A stretch of 64,000 nt of DNA, from contig DAOORA010000016.1 in the NCBI GenBank assembly GCA_035389045.1, forward strand, positions 1 to 64,000, read 5' to 3'. Origin of the DNA: Bacteroidales bacterium. GTDB lineage: Bacteria > Bacteroidota > Bacteroidia > Bacteroidales > CAIWKO01. The notes under the pieces were generated by a model. That model was given only the letters and a program-made list of their open reading frames with translations. It was not told where the DNA came from and searched no databases. The stretch's first letter is position 1. Each line of letters opens with the position of its first letter. A program made the translations under genes and the position numbers. Positions 7,636 to 47,102 of this stretch are shown here, in pieces.

Positions 7636-7888
7636 AACAGCCCTCCTTATTAAAGTTTGTCAATACATGCAATAAAAATACAAACATTTTATTCAAAATC
7701 CTATATTTTAACCATTTTTTTTCAGTTAATCAAGCTGATACGTTGGTTCAGCTTATATATCAGTGAAATATGATTTCTTTTAAATAAATAAATCATGGAC
7801 AAGGTAAGTTTTTGAAAAAAAATTTTTTAATGAGTGAAACTATTTCTACTTTTGACCACATTAAATTAAATGAAATAATAGATACTAT

Positions 7889-9271
7889 ATGGAACTTCCT
7901 TTCACCGAATCCTACAAAATAAAGATGGTCGAATCCATTCGCCGGAGCAGCAAAAAAGAACGGCTGAAATGGATAAAAGATGCTCACTACAATGTCTTCA
8001 ACCTTCGCAGTGAACAGGTTTTTATTGATCTGCTCACTGATTCGGGTACCGGTGCCATGAGTGATAAACAATGGTCGGCCCTTATGCTGGGCGACGAAAG
8101 TTACGCCGGTGCATCATCGTATTACAAACTCAAAGAAGCCATAAAAAACATCATGGGCTTTGAGTATTTTTTGCCTGTCCACCAGGGACGCGCCGCCGAG
8201 AATGTGCTTTTTTCAGTATTGGTCAAGGAAGGCGACCTGATACCTGGCAACTCCCATTTTGACACCACCAAAGGACATATAGAATTCCGTAAGGCAACAG
8301 CTGTGGACTGCACTATTGACGAAGCTTTTGACACCACGTTGATCCATCCTTTTAAGGGAAATGTCGATCTGAATAAGCTGGAAGATGTTCTGAAAAACAA
8401 CCCCAAAGAAAAGATTCCGTTCATTATTGTCACCATAACCTGTAACAGCTCAGGCGGACAGCCTGTTTCAATGGCCAATTTAAGGGATGTGCATGCCTTG
8501 GCTCAAAAATACGACATCCCTGTGGTTTTCGACTCGGCACGTTTTGCCGAAAATGCTTATTTCATTAAAATCCGTGAAAAAGGTTACGAAAATAAATCCG
8601 TCAAGAATATCGTAAAAGAAATGTACACCTATGCCGAAGCCGCTACGATGAGCAGCAAAAAAGATGCGATCGTGAACATGGGCGGGTTTATCGGCATGAA
8701 GAGTAAGGAATTGTTTCAAAAAGCCAGTTTTTTCAACATCATGTATGAAGGCTTTGTAACCTATGGTGGTATGTCCGGACGCGACATGAACGCCCTGGCA
8801 CAGGGACTGGACGAAGGGACCGAGTTTGACTACCTCGATACCCGTATCAAACAGATAGCTTACCTGGGACAGAAATTAAAGGATTACTGCGTACCCTTGC
8901 AGGAACCTTTTGGTGGCCACGCCATTTTTGTGGACGCAAAAAAATTCCTTTCGCATGTTCCCAAAGAAGAGTTCCAGGCACAAACGCTGGCCATTGAACT
9001 ATATATTGAGGGCGGTGTGCGTGGCGTGGAAATCGGCGCCATCATGACCGACCCCGACCCCATAACCCGCGAACCGCGTTTCCCAAAACTGGAACTATTG
9101 AGGCTGGCCGTACCCCGAAGGGTATATACCAACAACCATATGGATTATGTAGCGGCTGCCCTGGGTAACGTTTACGAAAGACGCATGGAAATCAGCCACG
9201 GCTACCGTATCACCTACGAATTACCAATTATGCGTCACTTTACCATAGGACTGGAAAAAATTGAAGGGTAA
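7889..9271 (+). CDS. tnaA: Tryptophanase (PLP beta-eliminating lyase)
   Basis: Motifs DLLTDSGT, HQGRAAE, MSSKKD (PLP lysine). C-terminal RHFT favours tryptophanase over tyrosine phenol-lyase (RFFT). Confidence 0.8.
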   Translation: MELPFTESYKIKMVESIRRSSKKERLKWIKDAHYNVFNLRSEQVFIDLLTDSGTGAMSDKQWSALMLGDESYAGASSYYKLKEAIKNIMGFEYFLPVHQGRAAENVLFSVLVKEGDLIPGNSHFDTTKGHIEFRKATAVDCTIDEAFDTTLIHPFKGNVDLNKLEDVLKNNPKEKIPFIIVTITCNSSGGQPVSMANLRDVHALAQKYDIPVVFDSARFAENAYFIKIREKGYENKSVKNIVKEMYTYAEAATMSSKKDAIVNMGGFIGMKSKELFQKASFFNIMYEGFVTYGGMSGRDMNALAQGLDEGTEFDYLDTRIKQIAYLGQKLKDYCVPLQEPFGGHAIFVDAKKFLSHVPKEEFQAQTLAIELYIEGGVRGVEIGAIMTDPDPITREPRFPKLELLRLAVPRRVYTNNHMDYVAAALGNVYERRMEISHGYRITYELPIMRHFTIGLEKIEG

Positions 9272-9293
9272 ACCCGAACCGATTTTAAGCAAT

Positions 9294-11036
9294 TTACAGT
9301 TTAATGATTGGTGTTATGCAGGAGTTTACTTCACCAGATCCAATTACTGCAAAATAATAACCGGGCTTTAGAGCAGAAAGATCTAATTCGACAGTGCACC
9401 TATGGACAGTAAGGTCAGAAAAACTATATGACTGTACCGTTCTTCCCGTGATGTCATTAATTTCTATCGTTGCTTTTCCTGAAGAGGAATTGTTCCAGCT
9501 CAAATTCAGTTTGGTTTTCACGGGATTGGGAAAAGCTGATATCTGCATTTCCGGTGCCGTTTCAGGCAGCCCGCTGATCATCTCTCCTGTGTTACCGGTC
9601 CGCCCGTTAGTTCCCTTATACGTTCCCCAGAGGACTTTTTCAGGGCTATAAGGAACATTTAATTCATACACATTGATGTAAACCGAATCGGTACTGCCTC
9701 CAAATGAGTTGGTGTATGACAAAACCACCAGTTCCATCATATTGTCACCGTCAACATCTCCGATATTGACACCGTTCATAAAAGTCCAGCCCCTTGGACG
9801 CAAAGGGAACCCGGCAAGCTGGTTCGGATTGGCGATACTATAGGCATGTACGAAACCGTAACCTGTTGAATCGAGCAGATTGGAGCCAAAGACAAGATCA
9901 AACCCATTATCATTGTTCACATCGGCAACCGAAATAAATCCTTCGAGCCCGCCCGGTTTAACAATGGGAAACCCGGCAAGCAGGCTGCCGCCGGCGACCC
10001 AACCGTACAGCATATCATCGGCATCGCTGCCAATGGGACGGCTCATAAAAATATTCCATGCACCGTTGATTTTTACAACTGCCGGCGGCGAATAAGTCCA
10101 GCTGCTGTCAGGCACACCGCAGGGCCATCCGGGATATGAGCCGGCATCATTATTCATCACATAAAACATCGGTGCATCACCGTGAGTAGAACCGACAATT
10201 TCCTTTTGACCGTTATTATCAATGTCGGCAATAACCGGTGATTGATAACTGTATTTCTGAAGCGGATCGGTGACATCGGGAAAACCGTTATGCGGCAAAC
10301 CATTAAGACCGAAAATATAACGTGTTTTGGTTGAATAAGCGACGATTTCTTTTTCACCATCATTATCCACATCGGCTACCGAAGGAGTAACCGCAGGGAT
10401 GCCGTCCAGGGTGACCGGCCAGGCCGTGCTGAACTCGGTTCCGTTGAGTTTCAGAATATGAACTTTCCCTGCAGGCGACATTCGTTCACAAACAACGATC
10501 TCCATGATACTGTCATTATCAAGATCGGCAAGCGCAGGAGCACATATTATCCAGTGGTTGTTGAAATTTACCGGCCAGCCGGTCAGGACATTTCCGTCTT
10601 TGTCAAATACATAAATATGTCCGTTATCGGGACTGCCACCGGTGACCTGAACCACTTCAGGATGTCCGTCGTTATTCATATCTGCGACAGAGGGGGGATA
10701 TATGGCCGTTCCTGATAACGGATGCTGCCATAAAAGCCCGGAATGGGAATAAACATAAAGGGTACTGTTTGCAGCAAAGACAATATCTGATGCGTTATCA
10801 TTATCGATATCGGCAAGCGCCAGTCCCCGCATATTTTTAAACACAGAATTTCCAACCACCGTCACGGGAAAACCCGGCATCTGACTGTACAAAGTCTTGT
10901 CATGTCCGTTTTGCGGCGATTTAACACGGCGTGCCGACATCACCTGGTTATCATTCATATAAGCCTGGTGCCAAGTCTGCGATACTGCAACAAAAGGCAT
11001 AACTGATACTATTAAAACAAAAAATAATGATCGCAT
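9294..11036 (-). CDS. FG-GAP/VCBS-repeat protein with T9SS CTD
   Basis: Repeated P..ADxxNDG..EIV and GWP/GFP units, C-terminal AFPNP. Confidence 0.85.
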   Translation of the reverse strand: MRSLFFVLIVSVMPFVAVSQTWHQAYMNDNQVMSARRVKSPQNGHDKTLYSQMPGFPVTVVGNSVFKNMRGLALADIDNDNASDIVFAANSTLYVYSHSGLLWQHPLSGTAIYPPSVADMNNDGHPEVVQVTGGSPDNGHIYVFDKDGNVLTGWPVNFNNHWIICAPALADLDNDSIMEIVVCERMSPAGKVHILKLNGTEFSTAWPVTLDGIPAVTPSVADVDNDGEKEIVAYSTKTRYIFGLNGLPHNGFPDVTDPLQKYSYQSPVIADIDNNGQKEIVGSTHGDAPMFYVMNNDAGSYPGWPCGVPDSSWTYSPPAVVKINGAWNIFMSRPIGSDADDMLYGWVAGGSLLAGFPIVKPGGLEGFISVADVNNDNGFDLVFGSNLLDSTGYGFVHAYSIANPNQLAGFPLRPRGWTFMNGVNIGDVDGDNMMELVVLSYTNSFGGSTDSVYINVYELNVPYSPEKVLWGTYKGTNGRTGNTGEMISGLPETAPEMQISAFPNPVKTKLNLSWNNSSSGKATIEINDITGRTVQSYSFSDLTVHRCTVELDLSALKPGYYFAVIGSGEVNSCITPIIKL

Positions 11037-31105: not shown

Positions 31106-31202
31106 CAACCCCTTATCTGACTTCCTGAACATATAAAATGGCAGCAAAATGACGTAAGCCTGCTCTTTTACAATTTCTATTTAGTGTTTGAGCGAAAACC
31201 CA

Positions 31203-31473
31203 GTGTCTGAATCGAAAAGTTCAGTTTCGAGGCCTGTCTGACTGGCCTGCCAGGCAGGCTTGCGAAGCGACAAAAAGCGGAGTTTACTGGGGTAAATGCG
31301 CCGTGCTGAGTTTATCGAAGCAAGCATTTTTGGAGCAAGCGTAACCCTGCCCGACTGCGGCAGCGATTTTTTATAGGAGATAATCTCACAGAAATATTTT
31401 AATCAGTAACGGGAATTTGTAAGATGATCCTATGCTATAAAATCGCTGTCCGGTCAGGCGGGCTTTCCGACAC
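31203..31473. repeat. MITE-like scaffold carrying nested palindromic inserts
   Basis: Ends GTGTCTGAA / TTCCGACAC. Inserts CCTGTCTGAC..CAGGCAGG, GCCGTGCTGAGTTTATCGAAG and CCTGCCCGAC..GTCAGGCGGG. Confidence 0.55.
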
Positions 31474-32106: not shown

Positions 32107-32250
32107 AGATAACGAGCCCGTCTGGGATCCGCCACGGCGGACGGCGTCGTTTTAAAAGCCGTTTCCTGTCCTAATAACACCGCCGCTTGATAAAAGAACT
32201 GCACTGTCCTAAAACCCCGCTGCCCCTCTGATAGCAAGCCTTTGTAAGCA
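32107..32250 (-). other. attC-like site (degenerate, with palindromic insert)
   Basis: On the minus strand, TGCTTAC lies 4 bp after the upstream stop and the element ends CTCGTTATCT. Confidence 0.55.
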
Positions 32251-32749: not shown

Positions 32750-32877
32750 GCATAACGGTCGAGGCTATATGCAGTGAGGGATTGCGAGCTGTTTTCCTGT
32801 CTGCAGACACCGAAATTTGAGCGGGGCAGAATGCTTGAATTACTACTGAAATCCTTATTGCATATAGCCTTTAGGGG
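32750..32877 (-). other. attC-like site
   Basis: Arms AGGCTATATGCAGTGAGGGATT / AATCCTTATTGCATATAGCCT. R' GTTATGC, R'' CCCCTAA(A). Confidence 0.75.
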
Positions 32878-32929
32878 TTCGGTGTTTGTTGTGATATCTT
32901 TCAATTTAGTTGTGTCTTTAATTTCGAGT

Positions 32930-33997: not shown

Positions 33998-34054
33998 AAC
34001 TTCTGCAATGTTTTTCTTTTTTCACACTGACCGCTAAAGGATTGGCTCTTTAAA

Positions 34055-34173
34055 TATTTCAAAATTACAAATTTATTTTATAGAAGCAAATAAGCGGGTG
34101 TAATTTTTCCAGCGGGTGAAAGTCCCTTCCTTAGGCTCTCACTAAAGGCTTAGCCGGTAGGGCAGCCTGCTCG
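34055..34173 (-). promoter_or_regulatory. Repeated promoter module, copy A
   Basis: 34055-34123 matches 36068-36136 (about 62/69) and 34156-34173 equals 36248-36265. Contains a TAATTTTG (-7) box facing rsgA. Confidence 0.6.
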
Positions 34174-36000: not shown

Positions 36001-36067
36001 TTGAAGGTTTCTAAGAATTTATCACGTATATGAATTACCGATTGCGATCCGGCTGCTGCGCTATAAG

Positions 36068-36265
36068 TATTTCAAAATTACGAATTTATTTTATAGAAAC
36101 AAACAATCCGGTGTGATTTTTCCAGAGGGTGAAAGTTATGCCCTTCGACTGTTATAGTTATAGAAGCTCTAAGGCGGGATGCTGATTACGGGGAAATTGC
36201 TCCATTTGCCAGTGGGCGGAAACTGCTGTCTGCTGAAGCGGATTGCTGGTAGGGCAGCCTGCTCG
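36068..36265 (-). promoter_or_regulatory. Repeated promoter module, copy B
   Basis: Same module as copy A. TAATTTTG at 36073-36080 faces the 34222..36000 gene. Confidence 0.6.
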
Positions 36266-36338
36266 ATGATTGGCTGGCATTATTTTATTCTCTTTCCGAT
36301 ATAAAACATATAGCCATAGTACGCTTTGTATTTGTTAT

Positions 36339-36509
36339 GGGCACCTCTAAAAACTTCAAATTTCTTTGTTCGTCTTCGTTCTTCAAATCCTTGCGTCCGG
36401 CAGGCTCAGCACAGGCATATACGCTATGTACACTGCGGTTTTCAGAACTTCGACTGCCTCGAACTTTTTTGTTTCTATAGGCGTCCGATCCAGGTTTTTA
36501 GAGATGCCC
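36339..36509. mobile_element. MITE with 16-bp terminal inverted repeats
   Basis: GGGCACCTCTAAAAAC ... GTTTTTAGAGATGCCC (1 mismatch). Contains a GGCAGGCTCAGCACAGGC REP-like insert. Confidence 0.75.
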
Positions 36510-36664
36510 TTATATAATTCTGCTTCATATCGCTGGTATCGATTGTTACTATAGCCTATCGAATTGGCGGTTGCTCTTCGGTGGCGCTTATACTATTATA
36601 CTTCCTACGAAGAACAAAGGTTTCAATATGCTCGACACTGTCATAAAAAGCACTGTACTGCAAC

Positions 36665-36775
36665 TGACAGCAACCGCCTGATAGACCAAAAAGCCCGATA
36701 AACATTAGGATTTATCGGGCTTTTTGCTCCGCCGCGGCGGAAGGGCTTTTCGGCTATCACTCTATGTGTTTAAAT
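36665..36775 (-). other. attC-like site, paralog of 41046-41162 (degenerate right end)
   Basis: Shares AACACATAGAGTGATAGCCGAAAAGCCC...CAAAAAGCCCGATAAATCCTAATGTTTATCGGGCTTTTTGGTCTAT with 41081-41158. Starts just after the ATPase stop. Confidence 0.6.
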
Positions 36776-36778
36776 TTA

Positions 36779-38011
36779 TCATCCTACTTTTTCTAGCAGC
36801 CATTCAAATACATTTTTATGAATTATTCCTGCTCTGTTTTGAGTAAAAGACTCAGTCGAAAGCAAATATTTCGGATAATTGTCTTTTACTTTTTCTAAGG
36901 GTGCAAATTCACGTTTTTCGGTTTCAGGATTTGAAATCTCCCAAGCAACTTGATAATATTCAATGTCTCCATTACGATTCTTTACAATAAAATCAATTTC
37001 TGCATCTCTAAGTGTTCCTGTCCAAATTTTATATCCTCTCCTTAGAAGTTCAAGATATACTACATTTTCAAGAATATGACCTCTGTTTGATATTCTTTCT
37101 CGTCCGACAAGTACATTCAGCAATCCTAAATCTACGAGATAATATTTTTCTTGAGTGGCAAGTTGTTTTTTCCCTTTTATATCAAAACGATGCACACAAT
37201 AGAAAACAAAACTTTCAACTAAATAAAGTATAAATTTATCTACCGTTGCATGATGAACACTCTGTCCGTCAACTTTTAAAGCTTTTGATATACTACTAGG
37301 TGACATTTGGCTACCGATATTCGATGCGACAAATTTTATAACGTTATTAAATGCTCGTTTATCATTTATTTTATTTCTTTGCATAATATCTTTTTCAATA
37401 ATTGTCGCATATAAAGCTTCAAGATATTCGTAAATTTTATCAAAACCGTCTTCACGTAGTTCAACTCCTTTGGGTAAAGATGTTTCATTTACAAAATCGT
37501 AAAATAATGCGTCATAATTTAGGTATTTATTATTATAATCAATACCTCTAAATTTCAGATATTCAGCAAATGAAAATGGTAAAATAGAAATATCAATATA
37601 TCTACCACTCAGCAAAGTAGCCAATTCACTCGATAAAAGGTTGGCATTTGAACCTGTGATATAAACATCAATATTTTCTGTGGCATAAAGCCCATCAACT
37701 AATTTCTCAAAATCCGGAATATTCTGAATTTCATCAAGAAATATATAGTTTTCTTTTTCTATAACTATTTTTGATTTTATCTCAAAATAGATGTCATCCC
37801 ACTTTTTATTTAGATAATTCTCAGGTAATTCATAATTATATAACTGAGTCTGTTCGGGTTTTACACCATTAGAAATCAAACGATTTTTGAACATCGTTAA
37901 TAGTGTGGATTTTCCTGAACGGCGTAATCCAGTCACTACTTTGATAATGTCTTTATCCTTGTACGATAATAATTTATCTATATATTCTTTTCTTTCTATT
38001 AAATCTTTCAT
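36779..38011 (-). CDS. AAA_14 ATPase with DUF4143 domain
   Basis: Motifs GLRRSGKS, FLDEIQ, TGSN, LSGR, LENVV..EL, EIDF. Has its own TATCTTTG box upstream. Confidence 0.9.
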   Translation of the reverse strand: MKDLIERKEYIDKLLSYKDKDIIKVVTGLRRSGKSTLLTMFKNRLISNGVKPEQTQLYNYELPENYLNKKWDDIYFEIKSKIVIEKENYIFLDEIQNIPDFEKLVDGLYATENIDVYITGSNANLLSSELATLLSGRYIDISILPFSFAEYLKFRGIDYNNKYLNYDALFYDFVNETSLPKGVELREDGFDKIYEYLEALYATIIEKDIMQRNKINDKRAFNNVIKFVASNIGSQMSPSSISKALKVDGQSVHHATVDKFILYLVESFVFYCVHRFDIKGKKQLATQEKYYLVDLGLLNVLVGRERISNRGHILENVVYLELLRRGYKIWTGTLRDAEIDFIVKNRNGDIEYYQVAWEISNPETEKREFAPLEKVKDNYPKYLLSTESFTQNRAGIIHKNVFEWLLEKVG

Positions 38012-38077
38012 AGTACAAAGATAATTAAATTATCAAAACCATCAAAAATTGCAAGTTTTGATAATATATGACACTTT

Positions 38078-38187
38078 GTCGGGTAACTCAGGCTGATTAC
38101 TCCGCCCTTGTCCCCTAAGAACCGTACTTGAACCTTTCAATTCATACGGCTCAGGCTCTCTATAGGCGGATTAAACCACCCGGCAAT
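38078..38187 (-). ncRNA. Group II intron 3' fragment (end of DIV, DV, DVI), copy 1
   Basis: Minus strand reads GAGCCGTATGAATTGAAAGGTTCAAGTACGGTTC (DV, 38119-38152) then TTAGGGGAC...TTACCCGAC. Confidence 0.85.
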
Positions 38188-38320
38188 ATACAAAAAAATT
38201 CAGTGAATACGTCAGCGGTATTTTCTTTTTAAGAAATAAGCAACACCCGCCAAACGTAAAAATCCCGTTCTACATCCGGTTTCTTGAAAAGTTTGGTGTG
38301 GACATAATGCTGTGCCCCGC

Positions 38321-38416
38321 TTGTAACGATCAGGTGCTGCTGCATGGCGGGATATCTTTGATGACACGCTGAATGTCGCAATACAGTCTCCCGCTTGTAG
38401 CAGCACAAAGTTATGC
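38321..38416 (-). other. attC-like site
   Basis: R'' GCATAAC 7 bp after the stop. Arms GTGCTGCTACAAGCGGGA / TCCCGCCATGCAGCAGCAC. R' GTTACAA. Confidence 0.8.
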
Positions 38417-38423
38417 ACTGCGT

Positions 38424-40451
38424 TCATTGTTTTATAAATTTAATCACTTCAATTCTTTTATCGGTTTTAACTTTCACAAAATATATTCCGTTGGCTAAAT
38501 CACCAATATTTACAAGTGTTTTTTTATTATTTACTTTTTGTTTTAAAATTTTCTGTCCGTTTATATTATATATATTTAGCTCACTGTAGCCTAAACTTGA
38601 AGGTTTTTCTATGATTATATAAGAAGAGGATGGATTGGGATAAATAGAAATATCGCCTTTTTCAATTATTTCCTGCATACCTGTAATTAGAGATAATGGA
38701 CGCTTCCAGATGCTACTACCGTGAGTACCGCAATACATTACACTATCTGTTGCAGCCAAACAGATAATACTCTTATTTAATAAGCCGTCATTAAAATCGC
38801 ACCATGTCTCTCCATAATCCGTTGTTGAATAAATACCGCCATATCGCGCGGCTGTATAAATTACATTATTATATCTGACAAAAGTAGCAAAATGCAATCC
38901 CAACAGTCCATTGTCTTTAAGGAGCCATGTTTCGCCATTATCCGATGAAACGTAGACGTGACCTGTACAATATATACCTGTAAATAAATGTTCATCATAT
39001 TTTTTAATGGTGAGCACATTGGTACTGCTTAACCCATTATTTTTTTGCGACCAATTTAAGCAAAAATCATCGGAACGGTAGATTCCATTATCCGTTGCTA
39101 CATAAACAAATGGGCTGTCAATTTCAATGGCTTTAATATTCGTGGTTGTGACAAATTGATCAAAATCCGACAAATTCCATTGCAAGCAATTATCATTGGA
39201 TATGAATATTTTGCCTGAGGAAGTACCTGCAAAAAAAATGTTTCCATAATTTGCCAGTGACAAAATATTAAAATCATACATATTAGTTATGCCATTATTC
39301 AAGGGAATCCAGTTGCCCGAACCGGAACTTTTATAGAATATGCCAGTATTGGTACCTGCATACAAACCTGAATTTTTCATTAAATAACAATTAATATTTG
39401 TAAAGATTCCTGAGGAAATCATTGTCCATGTATTTCCATTATTGTTTGTTAATAAAACATGTCCGTTGATGTCGTTGGCATATATACTGTCTGCAGCTGA
39501 TATGACAGAGTTAATATAGGAAGATTTCAGCCCATTATTTGCCTGATGCCAGATATATGTATTGGTATCGGCTTTATAAACACCGCTTTTAACAGTACCT
39601 AATAATACATCGTTACCAAGAATAATCATGCTGTAGATATCAAAGTCTCCAAGCCCGGTGTTGTGAGAAGTCCATGTTATACCATTGTCAGTTGTCACGC
39701 TGAAACCCTGTGTAGTAGCAACAAAGATTTTTGAACCAATTAATCCAATTGAAGTAACAGGAAGGTTGATGCCGGTTAAAGATGTCCAAATGTTTCCACC
39801 GTCATGTGAAGTGTAAATACCACTATTCAAACCGGCGTATATAGTAGAATCCTTTCCAATAACACAACCTACATTTTGCCCGGCAAATCCGCAGGATGTC
39901 CATAACAAATTATTTGTTTCTGTCTTACATACTCCTCCTCCTATAGTTCCTGCGAATATTGTATTATTTAAAATCCAGAGGGAATAGACATATAGATTTG
40001 TTAAACCAGTTGATGATTCATTCCAGTTTGTTCCGTCATTATAGGAAACAAAGAACCCACCCTCAGTTCCGGCATATATACAAGTGTCATTTGTAGCCAG
40101 GCAGTTTACTTTAAGATTTGACAGACCGGTATTGACAGTAGTCCATGTTATTCCGTAATCCGAAGATCTTAAAATCCCGCCTTCATAGGTTCCTGCAAAC
40201 AAAATATTATTCCTGATTGTTAAAGTTGTGATGTAGGGAAAATTCATATTCCCATTTATGGATTGCCAGTGTTCACCATTATCGGCTGATTTATATACAC
40301 CTCCGCCAAAAGTACCTGCAAAAATCAAAGAGTCATTTGATGCAAAACTGATAAATCTGCCACCTTCAGGACCATTTGTTTGCTGCCATTGGGCATTTGT
40401 ATTGAAAACAATACAAATAATTCCAATTAAAAGAAAAATTTGTTTTTTCAT
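38424..40451 (-). CDS. BNR/Asp-box beta-propeller protein with T9SS CTD
   Basis: Many AGT.GG..S.D.G..W...N.GL repeats and IYPNP. Confidence 0.88.
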   Translation of the reverse strand: MKKQIFLLIGIICIVFNTNAQWQQTNGPEGGRFISFASNDSLIFAGTFGGGVYKSADNGEHWQSINGNMNFPYITTLTIRNNILFAGTYEGGILRSSDYGITWTTVNTGLSNLKVNCLATNDTCIYAGTEGGFFVSYNDGTNWNESSTGLTNLYVYSLWILNNTIFAGTIGGGVCKTETNNLLWTSCGFAGQNVGCVIGKDSTIYAGLNSGIYTSHDGGNIWTSLTGINLPVTSIGLIGSKIFVATTQGFSVTTDNGITWTSHNTGLGDFDIYSMIILGNDVLLGTVKSGVYKADTNTYIWHQANNGLKSSYINSVISAADSIYANDINGHVLLTNNNGNTWTMISSGIFTNINCYLMKNSGLYAGTNTGIFYKSSGSGNWIPLNNGITNMYDFNILSLANYGNIFFAGTSSGKIFISNDNCLQWNLSDFDQFVTTTNIKAIEIDSPFVYVATDNGIYRSDDFCLNWSQKNNGLSSTNVLTIKKYDEHLFTGIYCTGHVYVSSDNGETWLLKDNGLLGLHFATFVRYNNVIYTAARYGGIYSTTDYGETWCDFNDGLLNKSIICLAATDSVMYCGTHGSSIWKRPLSLITGMQEIIEKGDISIYPNPSSSYIIIEKPSSLGYSELNIYNINGQKILKQKVNNKKTLVNIGDLANGIYFVKVKTDKRIEVIKFIKQ

Positions 40452-40495
40452 ATCTCCTTTTATGTAATGGTTAATATTTGCAGTATCATTTTTCT

Positions 40496-40605
40496 GTCGG
40501 GTAACTCAGGCTGATTACTCCGCCCTTGTCCCCTAAGAACCGTACTTGAACCTTTCAATTCATACGGCTCAGGCTCTCTATAGGCGGATTAAACCACCCG
40601 GCAAT
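40496..40605 (-). ncRNA. Group II intron 3' fragment, copy 2
   Basis: Identical to copy 1 at offset 2418. Confidence 0.85.
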
Positions 40606-40655
40606 ATACAAAAAAATTCAGTGAATACGTCAGCGGTATTTTCTTTTTAAGAAAT

Positions 40656-41035
40656 AAGCAACACCCGCCAAACGTAAAAATCCCTTTCTACATCCGGTTT
40701 CTTGAAAAGTTTGGTGTGGACATTATGCTGTGCCCTGCTTGCAAGAAAGCTAAGTTACAGCTTGTCGGGGCGGTGTTCCCCAACATCAGGGGAAACCCGA
40801 AAATTAAACGCTTTGAAGCTTTATGATAATAATGTGCTTTGCTCCTTTGGAGCGAAACGCTATCATATTGCCCTCTCCCGCCAAATTGACCTTAAATCCC
40901 AAAAACATTAATATTTCACCAACAATAAAATCGTGCTCCAATGAAAAAGCAACACATAATTTTAGCAAAACGGAATTTTTATATGTATCTCTGTATAGCC
41001 CAAATCTCAAAAACATCGCTACTTTTTCCCCTAAG
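40656..41035 (+). pseudogene. C-terminal remnant of an IS91-family (Y2) transposase plus downstream element end
   Basis: Frame 40656-40826 reads KQHPPNVKIPFYIRFLEKFGVDIMLCPACKKAKLQLVGAVFPNIRGNPKIKRFEAL*. CPxC...RGxP is typical of these tails. Partial copy at 38238-38326. Confidence 0.55.
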
Positions 41036-41045
41036 GTGAAAGTTC

Positions 41046-41162
41046 TGCTAACGGTGTCGCTGAATCCGCCAGTTGGCGGAATAGACCAAAAAGCCCGATA
41101 AACATTAGGATTTATCGGGCTTTTTGTTTGGGGCTTTTCGGCTATCACTCTATGTGTTATGC
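41046..41162 (-). other. attC-like site
   Basis: R'' GCATAAC, long internal hairpin, R' GTTAGCA. Contains a TCCGCCAGTTGGCGGA insert. Confidence 0.8.
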
Positions 41163-41187
41163 ATTCGTGCTTTCTTTCGTGCCATTT

Positions 41188-42189
41188 CTATTTCAACTTG
41201 ATAACTACTTTCCCTTTTGAACGTCCTGCTTCCACATAAGCTAATGCTTCGTTTGTTTGTTCAAATGAAAACACTCTGTCCATTACAGGTTTTATGACAC
41301 CATCATTTATAAGTGTAGTAATTTCTGTCAACTGATTTCCATTTGCTCTCATAAAAAGAAATGAATAGTTTACTCCAAGTCTTCTTGCATTATTTTTAAT
41401 TCCGAAACTTAACATTTTCATAATTAGTTTCACAAACCAAGGTAAACCAATGTCATTTGCAAAGTCTGTATCCGGTGGACCAGAAATAGAAATAACTTTT
41501 CCATTTGGTTTTAATATTCGTAGCGACTTTTCAAGTGTCTTACCATCCTGACTGTTTAACACCAGATCGTAATCTTTTAGTATAGTTTCAAAATCTTCAT
41601 TTTTATAGTCAATCACAATGTCTGCCCCCAAACTTTTTACTAATTCAATGTTTGTTGAACTTACCGTTGTTGCTACTGTCGCACCCAAATGTTTCGCCAA
41701 CTGAATTGCAAATGTACCTACACCTCCAGAACCTGCCTGAATTAAAATCTTTTGTCCTTTCTTCAGATGTGCCGTTTCTATCAGTGCTTGCCAAGCTGTC
41801 AAACCAACTAATGGAATAGAGGCTGCTTCTTCCATTGATAGATTTTTTGGTTTAAGTGCTGCATCATTCTCATTTATTGAAATGTATTCTGCAAAAGTTC
41901 CTATTCTGTGGTCAGCAGGTCTTGCATAAATTTCATCTCCAACTTTAAATTTGCTAACTTGTGAACCTACTTTTGTTATAACACCTGCAACATCGTGTCC
42001 CAAAGTAAATGGTGTTTTGTATGGCAGAAAGATTTTAAATTCTCCATTTCTGATTTTTGCATCAAGAAGATTTACGCCTGTCGCATAAACTTGAACCAAA
42101 ACATCATTTTCTTTCACAATTGGTTCTGCTGTTTCTGAAAGATGCAATCTCTCTTTTTTACCGTATCGTTTAACTGTAAATGATTTCAT
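41188..42189 (-). CDS. NADP-dependent oxidoreductase (MDR/quinone reductase-like)
   Basis: Motifs GHDVAG, AGSGGVG, GRSKGKVV. True ATG at 42189; the longer ORF call runs through the attC-like site. Confidence 0.9.
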   Translation of the reverse strand: MKSFTVKRYGKKERLHLSETAEPIVKENDVLVQVYATGVNLLDAKIRNGEFKIFLPYKTPFTLGHDVAGVITKVGSQVSKFKVGDEIYARPADHRIGTFAEYISINENDAALKPKNLSMEEAASIPLVGLTAWQALIETAHLKKGQKILIQAGSGGVGTFAIQLAKHLGATVATTVSSTNIELVKSLGADIVIDYKNEDFETILKDYDLVLNSQDGKTLEKSLRILKPNGKVISISGPPDTDFANDIGLPWFVKLIMKMLSFGIKNNARRLGVNYSFLFMRANGNQLTEITTLINDGVIKPVMDRVFSFEQTNEALAYVEAGRSKGKVVIKLK

Positions 42190-42237
42190 ATTTAATTTTT
42201 TAAGTCGGTTTGAAGTTCGTGGTTTCTCCAGCATGAC

Positions 42238-42359
42238 GCATAACGGTCGGGGCTTTCTGCTGTGCGCTTCCCTGCATTGTCTTAAAAGCCGAACTTTTTC
42301 TGTCCACAACTTACATGTCTACGAAGCCAGATGCGCATTGCAGAAAACCCTTAGGCACA
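42238..42359 (-). other. attC-like site
   Basis: R'' TGTGCCTAA(G) 4 bp after the stop. Arms GGGTTTTCTGCAATGCGC / GCGCACAGCAGAAAGCCC. R' GTTATGC. Confidence 0.8.
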
Positions 42360-46671: not shown

Positions 46672-47102
46672 TATTTTATAATATTTTATAATCGTTTATT
46701 TACAATAAATTGTATTTTAACTGTTTGAATATATTTTAAGATTAAAATATATAAAGATATAACAATGAAGTGAAAAAGTCAAACATTTTAACATTTTTTA
46801 CAACATGTGCATATATGGTTTAAACTATTTATAATATGGCATTTATGTATGTTTTTTGTAGTAAGTAATACTTCTGTGATAAATTGACGCAATAACAGCA
46901 TCTATGCTGTTTACACATCAGGATTGATGTCCGTTGAAAACAGATGGAAATTTGGAAAGCTATAAACAAACCTTATTGCATAAATAAAGCGTACCCAAAA
47001 ACAATACGATTACTGTATAACTTTTCGGGAGTAACGTAGTAATTTCCTCAGTCCGCCATGGCGGAACGCAGATTAACGAAGATTATGCAAGCCCCCCCCC
47101 TA

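Follow-up and report, generated by a model that had tools for sequence, protein, structure and literature searches.

A 250-nt direct repeat of group II intron and IS91-type sequence at cassette boundaries of a Bacteroidales genome: a probable composite scar

In the first 64,000 nucleotides of contig DAOORA010000016.1 of an uncultured Bacteroidales bacterium (assembly GCA_035389045.1; this whole stretch is referred to as the window), a gene for a protein sorted by the type IX secretion system (T9SS) is bracketed by two direct copies of a 250-nt sequence. Each copy contains the 3′ end of a group II intron, one in front of the T9SS gene and the other in front of an ATPase gene, and one copy stops at an attC-like site. 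Does this arrangement record the genesis of gene cassettes by an intron, as a sequence-only reading of the locus considered, or was it left behind by elements that invaded existing cassette boundaries? Based on the results below, we suggest that the repeat is probably a composite scar of two attC-boundary mobile elements, the intron and an IS91-type insertion sequence (IS), in a decayed cassette array devoid of an integrase.

Composition of the direct repeat

The two copies are located on the minus strand at 38077..38326 (copy 1) and 40495..40744 (copy 2), 2418 nt apart, with 246 of the 250 positions identical (98%). A BLAST search against the own genome gave a copy number of two only. Copy 1 borders the ATPase leader on one side and, on the other, the attC-like site that belongs to the T9SS cassette, and the high-coordinate side of copy 2 runs on into the remaining part of the IS91-type remnant. 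The mismatches, estimated at about four in the sequence-only reading, are exactly four, at positions 3, 9, 21 and 60 from the high-coordinate end. The final matching base of copy 1 (38326) abuts G 38327 of ...CGTTACAA, as had been described; 38324 is already a mismatch, so that the left break of copy 1 may fall anywhere within 38324-38327, and the claim that the copy stops precisely at G/TT (the slash denotes the crossover point) stands for the last match and not for the break itself.

The repeat is made up of 87 nt of an antisense IS91-family transposase tail, 162 nt of an intron tail and 1 nt of exon. Transposase homology ends at 40657/40658 and 38239/38240, and the minus-strand sequence beyond these points matches full-length introns from other Bacteroidales families; in the longest such match (G299), homology begins 5 nt from the transposase–intron junction. 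The intron had been recognized from the sequence alone, and the transposase part had been missed.

The identity of the intron part was established with Rfam: RF00029 (Intron_gpII, domains V and VI, DV-DVI) gave two minus-strand matches, 38078-38154 and 40496-40572, each covering the full model (1-77) and scoring 58.8 bits (E 5.5e-9; gathering score 40). The two intron 3′ fragments (38078..38239 and 40496..40657, both on the minus strand) are identical over 162 nt. Each comprises the last eight codons of the intron-encoded protein (YFLKRKYR and the stop codon, comparable with protein ends such as ...EYLFKRKFCRYAD before the stop codon and relatives), the 3′ side of domain IV and DV-DVI, with a DV of 34 nt carrying an AGC triad. 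The fragments stop short of the start codons that follow them by 66 nt (ATPase, ATG at 38011) and 44 nt (T9SS, ATG at 40451), the distances given by the sequence-only reading. No match to the reverse transcriptase domain PF00078 (RVT_1) was found in the 96.3%-complete genome, no D1-D4 intron domains were found in the window, and no intron 5′ part stands beside either repeat copy. Hence, the absence of a visible reverse transcriptase gene and intron 5′ end, noted at the outset, was borne out, and the full-length parent envisaged in the own genome did not turn up. Thus, what is present is not a complete mobile group II intron; only 162 nt of it remain. A third, different DV-DVI was observed elsewhere in the genome (G000:C26:52402-52470, L005; 41.1 bits), 56 nt from a contig end, and therefore at least one further intron is probably unassembled.

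The transposase part was identified through a search of 23 family genomes, in which one genome (G014) matched the upper part of the repeat only (77 nt, 92% identity). The matching stretch is the 3′ end of a 361-aa plus-strand open reading frame (ORF) with Y2_Tnp (7.4e-54) and Zn_Tnp_IS91 (5.6e-24) domains, and this transposase gene is preceded by one for a 311-aa tyrosine recombinase (Phage_integrase and Phage_int_SAM_4). The plus strand of both window copies encodes QHPPNVKIPFYIRFLEKFGVDIMLCPAC, with 92% identity over 25 aa to the G014 protein (tblastn). In copy 1, the fragment (38240..38326, plus strand) retains 28 codons (QHPPNV...CPAC), after which the frame enters the attC-like site. In copy 2, it continues to the natural stop codon (40658..40826, plus strand, 55 codons) and is followed by the non-coding 3′ region and the right end of the element (40827..41155, plus strand), which includes a terminal hairpin (41084-41126) and ends with ...CTCTATGT.

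The source genome is a metagenome-assembled genome (MAG) of 135 contigs. An independent JGI metagenome contig of 104 kb contains both repeat copies with the same spacing and 99.9-100% identity, copy 2 being distinguished there by a private substitution and a 2-nt deletion. Because this contig has the same two-copy structure, the repeat is not an artefact of a single assembly. A 20-mer spanning the transposase–intron junction had no matches in genome_contigs and four in the JGI metagenomes, two of which belong to the same organism (the 104-kb contig) and two of which are chance matches.

The three neighbouring genes are all on the minus strand. The bracketed T9SS gene (38424..40451) encodes 675 aa with a Por_Secre_tail domain, the ATPase cassette gene (36779..38011) belongs to the AAA_14/DUF4143 type, and upstream of the IS remnant lies a cassette gene for a zinc-type alcohol dehydrogenase (ADH; 41188..42309). 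Among 17 genomes of the genus, neither the T9SS gene (best identity 31%) nor the ADH gene has a close orthologue, and genome_contigs gave a single, distant match to the T9SS gene. A search of the repeat for Bacteroidetes-type promoter motifs gave only TACGTTTG, lacking a −33 partner. The ATPase leader carries its own TATCTTTG box, and for this reason the repeat is not required as the promoter of the ATPase gene.

Target positions of the intron and the IS91-type element

The parent intron lineage is represented by a complete copy in G341:C17, which is placed on the gene strand and includes D1-D4 (RF02012), a gene for a 492-aa protein with RVT_N, RVT_1 and GIIM domains, and DV-DVI. No HNH domain was found in the 492-aa intron-encoded protein of the relatives. 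The best solved relative of this protein is 6me0 (E 2.9e-154), which we take to be a IIB intron ribonucleoprotein; the IIC proteins 6ar1 and 7uim scored about 1e-29. Together with the AGC triad of DV, this bears out the initial assignment, and by these comparisons the window intron appears to belong to a IIB-like lineage without an endonuclease domain. An ORF-less copy of the same lineage (G064:C151; L047 4758-5316, ~560 nt, with D1-D4 and DV-DVI Rfam matches) is flanked by T9SS-tail genes on both sides, at a distance of 17 nt from the GTTATGC core that precedes it.

The intron 5′ part was found in 7 of 401 sampled genomes of the order. In the 5′ exons of these full copies, C-GTT-RNNN occupies positions −17 to −11 in five of seven cases (GTTATGC twice, GTTACCA once, GTTGGCA twice), and a sixth copy has ATTATGT at the same place. 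Several of the 5′ exons also show an ...AAC-TTTTGT... box ~60-90 nt further upstream. The fragments and all full relatives examined are in sense to the cassette genes, and the introns of the relatives end 13 to ~100 nt ahead of the next ORF. It is rather probable, as part of the composite-scar reading, that the lineage homes into the short leader between attC and gene, at a point 17 nt past the G of a GTT core. Applied to relatives of the T9SS gene, this rule would take the form of the leader pattern GTT-N14/AGAAAAATG.

The ATPase gene allowed the uninvaded state of the boundary to be sought. Its leader, which is the 3′ exon of the intron (38012..38077, minus strand), contains a conserved palindromic part beginning 8-12 nt past the intron end. 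Relatives of the ATPase were found among 230 candidate stretches; the best 80 of 157 (66-92% identity, many phyla) were compared, and 71 of the 80 loci, with at least 120 nt upstream, entered the upstream comparison (nine were dropped on account of short flanks or of no N-terminal match). The ~55-nt palindromic leader is kept in 62 of the 80 loci, none of which matches the intron piece, the transposase piece, the attC-like piece or the piece downstream in the window. GTTA[TG]GC occurs within 120 nt upstream of the ATPase gene in 8 of the 71 loci. In five (L084, L085, L086, L088, L115), all among the closest relatives, the sequence GTTATGC[AG]TCACTCAAA/AAAC... stands directly before the conserved leader. 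When the sites were aligned on the conserved ATTATCAAAAC, this block proved to be 11 nt from the 17-mer in the empty sites and 12 nt from the intron end in the window; because of this spacing, the window intron can be placed 17 (±1) nt after the G, like its relatives. On its other side, the gene has a canonical attC in several loci: ...GCATAAC... lies behind it in L083, L084, L088 and L092, and the hairpin behind the L083 gene closes on GTTAGGC with paired R boxes. Judging from these sequences, the ATPase gene is an ordinary cassette whose existing boundary the intron invaded. The sequence-only reading had placed the intron where the R′ of an attC would be expected, and this placement has held.

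The ATPase gene with its ~55-nt leader is distributed across Bacteroidota, Chlorobiota, Ignavibacteria, Cloacimonadota, Margulisiibacteriota and others (L083-L162), in few cases in an attC context. Three loci (L113, L118 and L135) have the palindrome on both sides of the gene, a pattern such as an independently mobile gene might show.

The IS91-type element also seems to have a preferred place. The GCATAAC inverse core (R″) of the ADH cassette attC (41156..41162, minus strand) abuts the IS right end, and the rest of that attC is absent. The same core is the attC start of ATPase cassettes elsewhere. The stretch 40658-41177 aligns with the G014 element and its flank over 520 nt (81% identity). 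This G014 element (L052, G014:C97 ~7655-10174) is apparently complete, with recombinase and transposase genes in 2.5 kb, although its transposase ends prematurely as compared with the window and G084 versions; the G084 transposase is 78% identical and has the first part of the window's IS tail in common. In G014, the IS end abuts GCATAAC behind a different gene, and an L″-L′-GTTATTT hairpin remainder lies beyond the other end of the element. A second truncated right end of 87 nt (36681..36767, plus strand) follows immediately upon the ATPase stop codon in the window (read along the gene, ...AAAC/ACATAGAG). With docking on the core checked at three junctions, we think it likely, within the composite-scar reading, that the right end docks on the GCATAAC inverse core. 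No target rule for the right end could be obtained from 11 other IS91 loci, which are not uniformly oriented, and a literature search by title found no report of an IS91 family targeting the attC inverse core. The hairpin at 41045-41154 was considered as an attC and rejected, as it belongs to the end of the IS91-type element, where a terminator-like hairpin is accompanied by a small GC hairpin.

Small GC hairpins of the form TCCGCC-N4-GGCGGA are also found in intergenic positions of the window (~47051-47066, 32126-32142, 36727-36742 and 41064-41080), one of them inside the IS right-end region. The motif ACTTTCACC-N5-GGAAAAA occurs at 36058-36141, 34045-34125 and 41024-41048, and hence also inside the IS91-type tail. 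Two of these occurrences, before a 592-aa T9SS gene and a GTPase gene, have in common a promoter-like sequence that comes after the motif.

Origin of the duplication

The site at which copy 1 ends was examined for its relation to integron recombination sites. As an attC, we counted a site with RYYYAAC/GTTRRRY inverse cores and an imperfect hairpin of 57-141 nt located just after a cassette ORF. The segment 38327..38416 (minus strand; GCATAAC-TTT-GTGCTGCT...AGCAGCAC-CTGATC-G(TTACAA)) has this architecture: it is 90 nt long, begins 7 nt past the T9SS stop codon and forms an extended, imperfect hairpin when folded (z values of the two strands, −2.65 and −3.04), with the core boxes GCATAAC (one deviation) and GTTACAA (two deviations), L boxes pairing over 8-9 bp and R boxes pairing at 4/7. 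The site seen at 38321-38416 in the sequence-only reading thus corresponds, at 38327-38416, to an attC-like hairpin. Members of its family in G002 and G003 stand between co-oriented genes and lose similarity right after GTTA. A covariance model built from five family members gave 13 matches in 7 of 18 genus genomes, one to five per genome. The matches are dispersed, and the group was accordingly rejected as an array and regarded as a family.

A relaxed architecture scan returned this site and a second good one at 32753-32879, behind an RsgA-type GTPase gene (shuffled sequences gave about one match per strand). The second hairpin has a 10/10 L stem, and its GTTATGC core is separated from the next ORF by ~18 nt; the ORF after that likewise has a core, GTTATCT, ahead of it. 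The strict canonical scan with 7-nt R boxes gave six and eight matches per strand in the window versus 4-10 in shuffled sequences, and it missed 38327-38416. No protein from the 23 family genomes exceeded the TIGR02249 cut-off for integron integrases, and the best matches skip model positions 180-238, the integron-specific part. On the window's contig, there was no match to Phage_integrase or another tyrosine recombinase. The best candidate of the own genome is a 502-aa Xer-like protein on a 2.6-kb contig. Two further repeat types were noticed: a MITE-like repeat of ~180 nt (36334-36519 in the window), with more than 30 copies of 72-92% identity across the genome's contigs, and a dispersed family of ~290 nt (31175-31460), often at contig ends of the assembly.

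We suggest the following course of events, in a tentative order, for the composite scar. Copies of the intron would have entered two adjacent cassettes by homing, one in the T9SS leader and one in the ATPase leader; both repeat copies stop at the 3′ splice site and then pass into unrelated leaders, for which two homing events are the likeliest reason. On the ATPase side, the right boundary has, from sequence comparison, the character of a verified homing junction. Then, an IS91-type element would have inserted at the inverse core behind the ADH gene, and a single deletion of ~4 kb would have fused transposase codon ~316 to intron position −162. We read the transposase–intron junction as a deletion scar made once because it lies inside both genes; lying at codon ~316 of 361 and eight codons before the stop of the intron protein, it was rejected as a homing or IS-end junction. 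The junction would subsequently have passed to the second intron copy by recombination anchored in the common intron 3′ end, with the other end closing no more than 3 nt from the GTT core in the attC-like site behind the T9SS gene (38324-38327). At this left edge, strand invasion in the intron tail followed by closure on TT or TTA microhomology accounts for the structure just as well as an integrase-type crossover.

The last step would be recombination of the transposase part with live IS copies, leaving four synonymous differences. The 87-nt transposase part contains all four mismatches, each of them a synonymous change at a third codon position, and the other 163 bases are identical; by chance, such a location has P ~0.015 and such synonymy P ~0.002 (21% of the possible substitutions there are synonymous). 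Since dead sequence would not diverge in this manner, at least one copy has probably exchanged sequence with a functional IS allele. Most easily this would have been copy 2, which retains ~500 nt of IS homology. As far as can be judged from their content, neither fragment could splice or transpose alone, and both would be inert debris. Even so, a 250-nt direct repeat flanking the T9SS cassette means that the cassette can be lost or amplified by ordinary homologous recombination.

Several points weigh against this course of events. The second homing event, into the T9SS leader, is presumed by analogy with the first, no close relative of the T9SS gene having been found. The assembly contains no full-length intron, reverse transcriptase or IS91 copy, and the live IS copies are thus postulated; MAGs frequently lack repeats. 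Either copy may be the original, and a purely illegitimate join explains a left edge at G/TT only through 2-3 nt of microhomology. Furthermore, the window is no clear array by standard criteria: the strict scan is at chance level, the relaxed scan gives two convincing sites ~5.4 kb apart, and no integron integrase reaches the NCBIfam cut-off in the 23 family genomes.

Site-specific recombination would offer another route to the same structure, which we regard as possible, though unlikely. An integron-type recombinase would have joined two sites, the attC-like one of the T9SS cassette and a secondary one in the transposase fragment, and the excised circle (transposase and intron fragments, T9SS gene and attC) would have re-entered at the attC of a sister chromosome; the extra gene copy would then have been deleted when the intron fragment recombined homologously with a full intron before the ATPase gene. 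The position of the last matching base next to the G of the attC core is the canonical crossover point, the attC-like family members elsewhere lose homology at the corresponding place, integrases are reported in a preprint to insert cassettes at non-att genome sites (10.1101/2022.09.11.507474), and the IS91-type element encodes a tyrosine recombinase with Phage_int_SAM_4. Yet the partner site is C/TTGCAAG (the base at −1 is T or C in G014 and G084 too) as against G/WT, the mismatch at repeat position 3 leaves the break unfixed with respect to G/TT, neither an integron integrase in the family genomes nor a tyrosine recombinase on the contig is available, and three steps are needed. Of the attC × secondary-site event followed by homologous recombination, as first proposed, the attC-like site has stood, and the expected partner sequence and the integrase have not. 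A bolder and rather doubtful version takes the left edge of copy 1 as a tyrosine-recombinase crossover, possibly by the IS91-type element's own enzyme, between the attC and the palindromic CTTGCAAG in the transposase gene. Remnants of attC parasites would then act as portable recombination substrates, and homologous recombination between the 250-nt repeats would be sufficient for a cassette to move or amplify. It is improbable that the repeat reflects a Campbell-type import, in which one gene already had the chimeric leader and circular or foreign DNA with the same leader, the T9SS gene and an attC integrated within the 250 nt. Integration of a circle by a single crossover does yield exactly two direct copies around an insert, both the T9SS gene and the ADH gene are accessory and strain-specific, and the allelic differences between the copies fit two sources; however, the same rare junction would be needed already before another gene elsewhere, so that the problem is only moved, and the junction 20-mer was found in no other organism in genome_contigs or, chance matches apart, in the JGI metagenomes.

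The remaining explanations fare worse. A stitching of two strain variants with a common 250-nt element into one contig is very improbable: the MAG is built from short reads and the repeat is longer than typical reads, but the second assembly shows this order too, its copy 2 carries small differences not seen here, and the four differing positions were resolved separately. The assembly error by which the duplication might have been dismissed at the outset is thereby made very improbable. Cassette genesis, with the intron as the agent linking genes to attC sites and the repeat as a record of freshly formed cassettes, is scarcely credible. It would account for intron 3′ ends just upstream of two cassette genes. 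The main argument against it is that the closest relatives have an ATPase cassette devoid of the intron, bounded in the same way and provided with an attC of its own; in addition, the intron is IIB-like and runs in the same direction as the genes, and one third of the repeat is IS91 sequence. The composite-scar reading replaces this picture with one of two attC-specialised parasites piled up at neighbouring cassette boundaries, the debris of which would have been shuffled by recombination.

Relation to known systems

Group II introns have been put forward as agents of cassette formation, reportedly by Leon and Roy in the IIC-attC model. Group IIC-attC introns (S.ma.I2 and relatives) are of class C, lie antisense to the cassettes and recognize the attC bottom strand as a hairpin motif. 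The lineage of the window shares with them a specialisation on the attC sites of cassette arrays, but it is IIB-like, in sense and placed 17 nt after the core, and is thus neither antisense nor of class C. The step by which the junction is proposed to have spread also has a known counterpart. In homology-facilitated illegitimate recombination and microhomology end joining, one end lies in a homologous anchor and the other at a microhomology; from the junction sequences, the anchor here would be the 162-nt intron tail and the closure would be at 2-3 nt of TT or TTA.

As for the second element, the G014 homologue has both domains of the IS91 family/ISCR (Y2_Tnp and Zn_Tnp_IS91), and the window keeps the last 55 codons and the right end with its terminal hairpin. 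The element here differs in having an upstream tyrosine recombinase gene and in abutting the attC inverse core. A possible route for the joining of attC to non-att sequence is suggested by insertion at integrase genome sites (attG), for which the preprint gives the consensus G/WT (bioRxiv 10.1101/2022.09.11.507474); the site here is C/TT, and no integrase was found.

It should be noted that several by-products of the analysis reach beyond this locus: empty-site support for the point at which a Bacteroidales intron lineage homes, 17 nt beyond the G of the GTT core; an IS91-type element apparently docked on the attC inverse core; and an example of debris that produces long direct repeats able to drive cassette loss and gain independently of an integrase.

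According to Sonbol and Siam (2021, Mob DNA 12:8, PMC7923331), an intron of this kind is already in print once. UHB.I2 is a IIB intron in cassette orientation, located immediately after an attC and encoding an endonuclease-less protein, and it thus shares with the window lineage the IIB type, the sense orientation and the position just downstream of an attC core. The same source describes H.ha.F1 and H.ha.F2, 5′-truncated IIB fragments with DV-DVI and a partial protein gene in clusters of attC sites lacking an integrase (CALIN), which resemble the window fragment in their truncation and integrase-less setting. As far as described there, those introns come from a hypersaline metagenome and from Halorhodospira, whereas the present host is an anaerobic-digester member of the Bacteroidales; exon conservation is given as poor (PMC7923331), in contrast to the fixed 17-nt distance from the GTT core and the empty site seen here. 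Finally, unlike UHB.I2, H.ha.F1 and H.ha.F2 as portrayed in that text, the window fragment is fused to IS91 sequence and duplicated.

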